Positions 40,803 through 41,477 of a DNA stretch of 47,543 nt are shown piece by piece. This DNA comes from a virus (lineage: Duplodnaviria > Heunggongvirae > Uroviricota > Caudoviricetes), in IMG/VR virus record IMGVR_UViG_2721755644_000004; one strand, 5' to 3'. The notes below the pieces were generated by a model, which saw nothing but the letters and a program-made list of their open reading frames with translations, was not told the DNA's origin and did not search any database. Each line of letters begins with the position of its first letter. The stretch's first letter is position 1. A program made the position numbers and the translations under genes.

Positions 40803-41477
40803 ATGAAAAACACTATCAGCGAACGTATTCGGAATCGTCGAAAAGACGTTGGATTAACCCAACAGCAGGTTGCGAAAGCAATCGGCATATCTCGTGTATC
40901 CGTAACAAAATGGGAAAATGGCTCTTCAAAACCTGACGGTGAGAATTTGTATCTACTGTCAAAATTGCTTTCCAAATCTCCTGAATGGATTCTTTATGGA
41001 AAGGACTGTCACGATAAAACCGATGATCTGCGTCTGAATCAGTACCCTTACATTAGTGACAACATCGCCCGGTTGCCCGTTTTAACGTGGGAACAGGCTG
41101 GTTATTGGGATATGAGTTGTCCAGTAACCAAGATTCCTGGTATTAATAACTGGGTTGATGTCATGACAAAAACCGCTGAAAACTCTTTTTTATTGCATGT
41201 TGAGGGAGATGCGATGACAAACTCTAACGGCCTCCCAACCATCCCCGACGGATCTACCGTGCTGATCACACCATGCTCAAGTAACATTAGAGAACTGGTG
41301 GGAAAAATAATCTTAATCCAATTGGAAGGAACGCCAAACGTAACACTAAAAAAAGTTGCGATTGACGGACCAAACATCTATTTGTTGTCACTGAATCCGC
41401 TTTACAAACCCATCGAACTGAATGGTGGTTACACCATTAAAGGTAAAGTTTCACAAATACATCAATACTTAGACTGA
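40803..41477 (+). CDS. CI-like repressor (HTH_XRE + S24 LexA-like domain) with catalytic Ser replaced by Ala (GDAM)
   Basis: HTH LTQQQVAKAIGISRVSVTKWENG; S24-like C-terminus with GDAM and Lys in TLKKV; start at 40803 preferred (upstream ATGs at 40704/40761 would place operators inside coding). Confidence 0.8.
   Translation: MKNTISERIRNRRKDVGLTQQQVAKAIGISRVSVTKWENGSSKPDGENLYLLSKLLSKSPEWILYGKDCHDKTDDLRLNQYPYISDNIARLPVLTWEQAGYWDMSCPVTKIPGINNWVDVMTKTAENSFLLHVEGDAMTNSNGLPTIPDGSTVLITPCSSNIRELVGKIILIQLEGTPNVTLKKVAIDGPNIYLLSLNPLYKPIELNGGYTIKGKVSQIHQYLD

Follow-up and report, generated by a model that had tools for sequence, protein, structure and literature searches.

An alanine at the catalytic serine position of a cI-type prophage repressor common in Escherichia coli

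Can a lambdoid prophage respond to the SOS response through its own repressor when that repressor has the fold of a LexA-type autopeptidase and an alanine in place of the catalytic serine? The question is raised by a repressor gene in a 47,543-nucleotide stretch of Caudoviricetes DNA (IMG/VR record IMGVR_UViG_2721755644_000004), which is referred to in its entirety as the window. Judging from sequence comparisons, we consider it probable that this gene encodes a natural ind-minus, working immunity repressor of an apparently complete lambdoid prophage, and that the prophage is SOS-blind in cis. The features of the gene on which this reading turns are the following.

40803–41477, plus strand: immunity repressor gene, 224 amino acids, cI-type, HTH_3 plus Peptidase_S24, with Ala at the nucleophile position
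40827–40991, plus strand: HTH_3 DNA-binding domain, residues 9–63, Pfam E 3.5e-17
41076–41450, plus strand: Peptidase_S24-like C-terminal domain, residues 92–216, Pfam E 1.8e-16
41097–41102, plus strand: Ala99-Gly100 (GCT GGT), equivalent to the scissile bond of LexA (A84-G85) and cI (A111-G112); kept
41211–41213, plus strand: GCG, Ala137, at the position of the catalytic Ser (LexA S119, cI S149); TCA or TCG in sister alleles
41349–41351, plus strand: AAA, Lys183, equivalent to the general base LexA K156 / cI K192; kept

Fold and catalytic residues of the repressor

A preliminary description of this DNA, made from the sequence alone, gave the protein a helix-turn-helix N-terminal domain and an S24 C-terminal domain, and both assignments are borne out by Pfam, with the Peptidase_S24 match (PF00717) covering profile positions 1–115 of 116. 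The best match in the PDB by phmmer is the lambda repressor 3bdn (E 2e-14), and the N-terminal domain matches that of P22 C2 with an E value of 1.3e-12. The AlphaFold model has a mean pLDDT of 77 and a low-confidence linker at residues 70–84. Its best structural matches in Foldseek are the full-length lambda repressor 3bdn, the cI C-terminal domain 1kca (TM-score 0.79, rmsd 2.3) and LexA C-terminal domains (TM-score 0.6–0.7). [quoted passage not shown] The gene is annotated as intact, and carries no pseudogene flag, in every listed genome row.

The same description had read G-D-A-M (codon GCG) where G-D-S-M is conserved, with the partner Lys retained in TLKKV, and had called for an alignment with LexA, lambda cI and P22 C2. 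In the phmmer alignment with 3bdn, VEGDAM of the repressor pairs with VEGNSM of lambda, TLKKV with TFKKL, and EQAGYW with VQAGMF. A MAFFT alignment with E. coli LexA (identical to PDB 7b5g), lambda cI (NC_001416) and P22 C2 (AY121863) gives the same equivalences and also puts Ala137 on the P22 C2 serine, so that the aligned position is confirmed: Ala137 corresponds to LexA S119 and cI S149, and Lys183 to LexA K156 and cI K192. In addition, the closest Ser-bearing relative has TCA at exactly the GCG codon of the repressor with identical flanking codons, and therefore the catalytic position cannot be assigned to any other Ser. Set beside the self-cleaving S24 repressors (MEROPS S24), the protein has the general-base Lys and the Ala-Gly scissile bond and lacks the Ser nucleophile of the G-x-S-M motif.

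In LexA-type proteins it is the Ser-Lys dyad that performs self-cleavage (PMC9926225). Structures of LexA with the corresponding Ser-to-Ala change are available in the PDB for E. coli (S119A, 1jhh/1jhc), M. tuberculosis (S160A, 6a2s) and P. aeruginosa (S125A, 8s7g). Laboratory non-cleavable mutants of this kind keep their fold and DNA binding, and have counterparts in K156A and K192A and in lambda cI ind-minus. RecA-stimulated self-cleavage is thus not expected of the protein in the window, and the prophage should therefore not be directly SOS-inducible through its repressor. The earlier proposal to this effect is supported as probable, since it follows from established enzymology and an unambiguous alignment.

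Databases currently label the protein "LexA family protein", "S24 family peptidase" and [quoted passage not shown]. By fold and architecture it does belong to the LexA/cI S24 family, but it should be filed as a non-peptidase homologue rather than as an autopeptidase. A literature search by accession found no paper naming this repressor protein or allele. Non-cleavable repressors and dead S24 domains are already established concepts.

Prevalence and descent of the alanine allele

A single alanine codon invites the suspicion of a sequencing error, of a mutation private to one strain, or of a misalignment that hides the true catalytic Ser. We are almost certain that none of these applies. The repressor gene is found in 702 of 5,426 complete E. 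coli genomes, and the exact 61-mer centred on GCG in 681 of them (~12.6%, about one in eight), the work of many laboratories; the one single-mismatch variant of the 61-mer that was examined keeps GCG. Three independent alignments agree on the position, and the serine sister allele carries its Ser at the same codon. The 61-mer count and the alignment with LexA, cI and P22 C2 together refute the artefact. All the members read from the 90% protein cluster, 14 in number and E. albertii among them, likewise have VEGDAM, and carriers of the Ala allele include ST131 (JJ1887 and others), O111 enterohaemorrhagic E. coli (EHEC) and animal isolates.

The serine sister (TCA), with protein accession WP_024173670.1, is represented by L002, from an O178:H19 strain, and by P0003. 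It shares 83.5% DNA identity and ~87% protein identity with the window repressor, and is present in only 8 complete E. coli genomes. Ser also occupies the nucleophile position in the more distant relatives P0006, P0007 and P0008, in a group ~44% identical, and in 55 of 58 relatives from other species in species-representative genomes. Ala recurs in P0002 (88% identical, codon GCG) and in a Salmonella relative, P0005 (68–70% identical, codon GCA). Pairwise distances unite the window repressor with P0002 in an Ala clade and L002 with P0003 in a Ser clade. Because P0005, with Ala, and P0006, with Ser, both fall outside these two clades, at least two Ser/Ala changes are needed, either two gains or a gain and a reversion. 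Each amounts to one T/G substitution in the first position of the codon. This distribution points to Ala as the derived state in the family.

The alanine state is also old. Between the window repressor and L009, both from E. coli and both with Ala, the C-terminal domain shows a dS of 0.73 and a dN of 0.043 (ratio 0.06), and dS between Ala alleles lies at 0.56–0.73. The Ala state has thus outlasted much synonymous divergence with the C-terminal domain under strong purifying selection, which speaks against a decaying gene that was inactivated recently. By analogy with lambda cI, whose C-terminal domain serves dimerisation and cooperative binding, the S24 domain is most plausibly still needed for these same functions.

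To place the variant in the wider family, we surveyed 104 full-length representatives of 50%-identity clusters related to the repressor. Ser is present in 85 and absent from 19, among which Ala (7) and Thr (6) are followed by a few others. Ser and Lys are both present in 80, and five more keep Ser but have Arg for Lys. Taken together, 24 of the 104, about a quarter, lack Ser or Lys, with Arg for Lys in 9. A relative from Arsenophonus nasoniae (P0016) is fully degenerate, having lost Ala-Gly and the whole G-D-S-M motif. Dead S24 domains thus appear to be common in cI-like repressors and are not flagged by annotation. The combination of Ala, Lys and Ala-Gly occurs in none of the 104 representatives, and the other 7 Ala clusters are without the aligned Ala-Gly, a comparison that is indicative only, as the linker aligns less reliably.

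The immunity switch and the prophage around it

The repressor gene is divergent from cro and lies between the early-left and early-right operons, with repeated palindromic operators over the early promoters on both sides, as in a lambdoid immunity switch. The elements of this switch are listed here.

40074–40499, minus strand: cII-like / YdaT-family gene
40496–40711, minus strand: divergent cro-like gene (P22_Cro family), first gene of the early-right operon
40738–40767, minus strand: putative PR for cro, TTGACA (reverse complement of 40762–40767), 18-nt spacer, TACCCT (reverse complement of 40738–40743)
40741–40754, no strand: putative operator GTAACAATAGTTAC, OR1-like, overlapping the spacer and -10 of the putative PR
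40761–40802, plus strand: in-frame upstream extension of the repressor (NCBI PGAP start, 238-aa form), 42 nt of operator and promoter DNA
40764–40777, no strand: possible weak middle operator TCAACCATAGCAAC, 23–25 bp from each neighbour, overlapping the PR -35
40789–40802, no strand: putative operator GTAACATTGGTTAC, OR3-like, abutting the ATG at 40803
41482–41508, plus strand: likely terminator after the repressor stop, hairpin AACCCGCA-TTCAT-TGCGGGTT and T-run TTTTT
41540–41568, plus strand: putative PL, TTGACT, 17-nt spacer, TACCTT, with operator GTAACTCTTGTTAC (41552–41565) in the spacer and -10
41750–43594, plus strand: start of the early-left operon under the putative PL, with DUF1391, ydfB, ydfC, a 124-aa ORF, DicF RNA, dicB and DUF1482

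Three exact GTAAC-N4-GTTAC sites start at 40741, 40789 and 41552. When one mismatch is allowed, the window holds five sites against 0.76 expected, a number that none of 100 shuffles reaches. The weak middle operator would give a lambda-like spacing of 23–25 bp. A simple consensus scan of the window listed neither the putative PR nor PL, which it missed because their -10 elements are weak, nor the terminator, which is conserved in relatives. The operators are found at the same positions in Ser- and Ala-type relatives, in E. coli and elsewhere, and on this ground the two repressor types should be homoimmune.

The NCBI start at 40761 lies 14 codons 5' of 40803, whereas more distant relatives start at the Met equivalent to 40803. 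As the extension is made of operator and promoter DNA, it is probably not translated, and 40803 is probably the real start of the repressor. The extension peptide MSTIATSLGSNIGY reads as translated operator and promoter sequence, its "NIGY" being the operator GTAACATTGGTTAC; ORF callers add extensions of a similar kind in relatives, where "VTLVT" in P0008 is likewise an operator. The operator GTAACATTGGTTAC holds a TAACAT -10-like hexamer 7 nt upstream of the ATG at 40803, which would give a leaderless repressor mRNA, like the lambda PRM transcript.

The putative PL would drive a ydf-dicF-dicB-exo-xis-int operon. DicF RNA (42986–43037; Rfam, 76.7 bits) and dicB (43221–43409) both lie inside it, and under SOS both division inhibitors would stay silent as well if the repressor is non-cleavable.

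Several E. coli chromosomes carry, between potB and potC, a lambdoid prophage to which the 47.5-kb window is identical; one of them is NZ_CP098203.1 (2945295–2992837). The RefSeq gene set comprises integrase, excisionase, exonuclease, dicB, the ydf genes, the repressor, cro and the YdaT-type cII; two genes for replication, hokD, RusA, the Q antiterminator, three tRNAs, holin, lysozyme and Rz; and the genes for terminase, portal, protease, decoration and capsid proteins, for a lambda-like tail, and for Lom and tail fibres. RefSeq flags four genes as pseudogenes, all of them accessory, and calls the rest intact. The prophage looks complete by this gene content. The part of the ST131 copy that was inspected has an intact-looking lambdoid gene set as well. 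The att core TGAATAAGAAGGTG lies just outside both ends of the window, at 639–655 and 48590–48606 of record L004, in which window coordinates are obtained by subtracting 901. The prophage splits the potABCD operon, changing the end of potB from ...KKVELE* to ...KKVSELDD* and leaving potC and potD 47.5 kb from the pot promoter, directly downstream of int.

The module that carries the Ala allele is >99% identical across three integration sites (potB-potC, ompW and yccA/serT), where it adjoins different integrases and at least three different head-gene sets. At yccA/serT of the bovine strain E2855 (L018, 12029–17116), the exonuclease gene is cut by IS1203 and the integrase is frameshifted, marking a decayed copy.

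Three contigs were considered as evidence of excision, and none of them proves a free phage. The IMG/VR contig L162 (identical to L099) has an attP-like junction with the core TGAATAAGAAGGTG that is best explained by tandem prophages at one att site; its positions 7316–12663 run from the Ala module through int and the junction to NleG-like (U-box effector) and other effector-like ORFs, which points to an attaching-effacing E. coli with prophages arrayed in tandem at potB-potC. The attP contig L163 carries another immunity type. L164, a 3,715-nt contig from a human gut metagenome, is too short to include the repressor and so is no proof. Its attP joins the integrase type (99.6%) to the tail-fibre end of the window (98.5%) and is without the methyltransferase segment, which is compatible with a closely related phage in circular, concatemeric or tandem form.

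Two publications on prophages were also considered. A study of ompW prophages reports excision but no packaging (PMC8112680). It is uninformative on the Ala allele, as most ompW prophages outside ST131 are without this repressor; in most of them, query coverage starts only after it. The "phage repressor (pr)" of prophage 3 of E. coli Nissle 1917 (PMC5987069) is unrelated, with none of its four primers found in the window and an amplicon of 410 bp.

Several further features of the window lie outside the immunity region. The gene iraM, an anti-adaptor for RpoS degradation (29912–30247, plus strand), stands between the Q/tRNA region and the lysis genes and adjoins a match to the sRNA STnc100 (30273–30462, minus strand, 132 bits). 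The tRNA at 31333–31408 (minus strand) is called Met (anticodon CAT) by ARAGORN and tRNA-Ile by RefSeq; it is presumably a lysidine-modified ileX-type tRNA, and lies beside two tRNA-Arg (TCT and TCG). An Rfam "IS009" match of 225 bits is present in the tail-fibre-assembly region near the prophage end (1090–1288, minus strand).

The repressor resembles lambda cI and P22 C2 in its two-domain architecture, in a gene divergent from cro, in palindromic operators at OR and OL, and in the conserved Ala-Gly site and Lys. It differs from them in its nucleophile, in an identity of only 29–38%, in 14-bp GTAAC-N4-GTTAC operators, a single clear one at PL and two (perhaps three) at OR, and in Qin/Rac-like neighbours (YdaT-type cII, ydfA-B-C, dicF and dicB). 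With the laboratory LexA mutants S119A, S160A and S125A it shares the same single substitution at the same position; in contrast to them, its substitution is natural, is fixed in hundreds of genomes, and is old and under purifying selection. Like GfoR/GtgR of Gifsy, DicA of Qin and RacR of Rac, it is a prophage repressor that is not expected to be cleaved upon SOS, and it shares their genomic neighbourhood of dicB, dicF and ydf genes. Those proteins have ~136–150 residues and no S24 domain, however, whereas this one has 224 residues and a full S24 domain. Finally, as in the catalytically dead S24 domains classed as non-peptidase homologues, the nucleophile position is without Ser; unlike the other Ala clusters of the survey, the repressor keeps an otherwise complete cleavage apparatus.

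Competing explanations and the meaning of the allele

An SOS-blind but otherwise functional temperate module is, in our assessment, the best explanation of these data. In such a module, the repressor would bind as a dimer to the GTAAC-N4-GTTAC operators over PR, its own start and PL, so that neither cro and replication, on its one flank, nor dicF-dicB-exo-xis-int, on its other flank, would be expressed. Retention of the S24 domain would serve folding, dimerisation and cooperativity, and with Ala for the Ser nucleophile, RecA filaments would be unable to trigger self-cleavage. Escape from lysogeny might then occur via rare stochastic loss of repression, via factors encoded elsewhere, or via recombination with other lambdoid phages. 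DNA binding, the loss of cleavage and the non-inducibility of the prophage are what we infer from the architecture, residues and operators described above.

Several points weigh against this explanation. The Ala-Gly bond and the Lys are kept in all Ala alleles, including the 68–70% identical Salmonella allele, and could hint at some residual use of cleavage, although chance retention is likely. The operators, promoters and leaderless mRNA were read from sequence only. The prevalence of the allele is clonally inflated, with at least 378 of the records being near-identical ompW prophages of the ST131 type. Moreover, the presence of the module at three att sites and with several head-gene sets suggests that the carrier phages do spread, which is harder to understand if induction is very rare.

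The main rival, which is substantial and overlaps in part with the functional module, is that the Ser-to-Ala change marks a grounded, host-domesticated prophage that is no longer a functional phage. We regard this as possible, though clearly the less probable account. Cells whose prophage could not be induced would have survived DNA damage, and the repressor would have been kept only to silence toxic genes (dicB, dicF, hok and lysis) and to give immunity to related phages. Indeed, non-inducible prophages have been found to reduce the sensitivity of their host to ciprofloxacin (PMC13320796). In complete genomes, the count is ~693 for the Ala type and 8 for its Ser sister, the E2855 copy sits in a decayed prophage, and no repressor more than 42.6% identical is found among 50,697 phage genome records. 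The genome counts are clonally biased, however, and the absence from phage records does not discriminate and is not a controlled test, as the Ser sister is absent from them too; two other Ala-type representatives have no close phage relatives either. The full, intact-looking lambdoid gene set of the window prophage and of the inspected ST131 part also speaks against domestication, and near-identical Ala modules joined to different integrases and head genes are not what vertical inheritance of one dead element would produce. The preliminary description had offered antirepressor-based or other induction, or a domesticated element, as what a non-cleavable repressor would imply. "Domesticated element" proves too simple for a prophage that looks complete, whose module occupies three att sites and has been kept under strong purifying selection; of the antirepressor part, an antirepressor in cis finds no support, and one acting in trans is possible.

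Antirepressor-type induction is known from the Gifsy prophages, from 186 (Tum) and from N15 (AntC). Along these lines, the repressor could be non-cleavable and the prophage still SOS-inducible via a LexA-controlled antirepressor, its own or that of another prophage, which we think unlikely. The Gifsy repressors, of 136 amino acids, are not cleaved; small antirepressors, encoded in a LexA-controlled dinI operon that lies downstream of the replication genes, remove them and are able to act in trans, and antirepressors of this sort are said to be common in E. coli (PMC3121763). The several att sites and phage backbones of the Ala module suggest some lytic route, and several small early genes are without known function. 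Against this, the small genes beside the repressor sit inside the operon or operons that the repressor itself silences, and the window contains no gene of the dinI, Ant, antirepressor, Rha, Bro-N, KilA or ImmA type by RefSeq names or, for the ten neighbouring ORFs, by PHROGs. Nor does the window hold a convincing LexA box. No CTGT-N8-ACAG site with an AT-rich centre is present in it, and none of its matches to the pattern is in promoter position. With a position weight matrix built from 21 LexA boxes, which could miss weak sites, the best score in the window is 14.7 at 34657, within the range of shuffled sequence (mean 12.2, maximum 19.7). This best site, TACTGGCGGTAAATACAGCG (34657–34676, minus strand), overlaps the stop of a small hydrophobic ORF, with the hokD/sok promoter region ~50 nt further downstream. 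On these searches, the window shows no LexA-controlled antirepressor operon of the Gifsy kind, and its repressor is not of the short, S24-less kind.

It is also conceivable, if very improbable, that cleavage of the repressor still takes place. The agent could be a Ser-bearing S24 partner acting in trans (LexA/UmuD-like enzymes, or a homoimmune Ser-type repressor with which it forms a mixed dimer), a different nucleophile, or a protease of the cell. UmuD is cleaved across its dimer (PMC9926225). The Ala and Ser alleles have the same operators and would meet in co-infected cells, and the combined retention of Ala-Gly and Lys in the Ala alleles, set against the loss of the aligned Ala-Gly from the other Ala clusters of the survey, would fit a continued use. 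The Ser sister is so rare, however, that a partner would normally be absent, and the retention of three residues is expected by chance at a dN of 0.04–0.2. As for another nucleophile, lambda cI and P22 C2 have the same Thr after the motif, and in both of them the Ser is the nucleophile nonetheless.

Returning to the SOS-blind module, a more ambitious version of it is that the Ala allele is no product of decay but a selected immunity type, a dominant anti-induction factor and perhaps a recurrent, reversible toggle. We put this forward only tentatively and hold it to be rather doubtful. If it were true, neither its own prophage nor any homoimmune Ser-type phage would escape the Ala repressor, even under DNA damage, to the advantage of lineages that often meet SOS stress, such as fluoroquinolone-exposed ST131. 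Within the family, the change from Ser to Ala would have arisen or reverted at least twice, and the one-nucleotide toggle from TCR to GCR may separate inducible from locked lysogeny.

When antibiotics that damage DNA induce prophages, the outcome is lysis, release of toxins and gene transfer. Induction changes the response of lysogens to quinolones as well (PMC13320796). Every repressor with HTH and S24 domains is taken by prediction tools and annotations for a RecA-dependent autopeptidase. Should the Ala allele prove non-cleavable, then ~12.6% of complete E. coli genomes carry a prophage type, the ST131 ompW prophage and prophages of O111 EHEC among its members, that ought instead to be scored as not directly SOS-inducible, and one residue would serve as a cheap marker. 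The interest of the allele lies in this change to the predicted inducibility of a common prophage, in its prevalence and in the evidence for its dead nucleophile as an old and maintained state. It lies as well in the Ala and Ser alleles themselves, which, with the same operators, constitute a natural matched pair for the cost and gain of SOS-inducibility.

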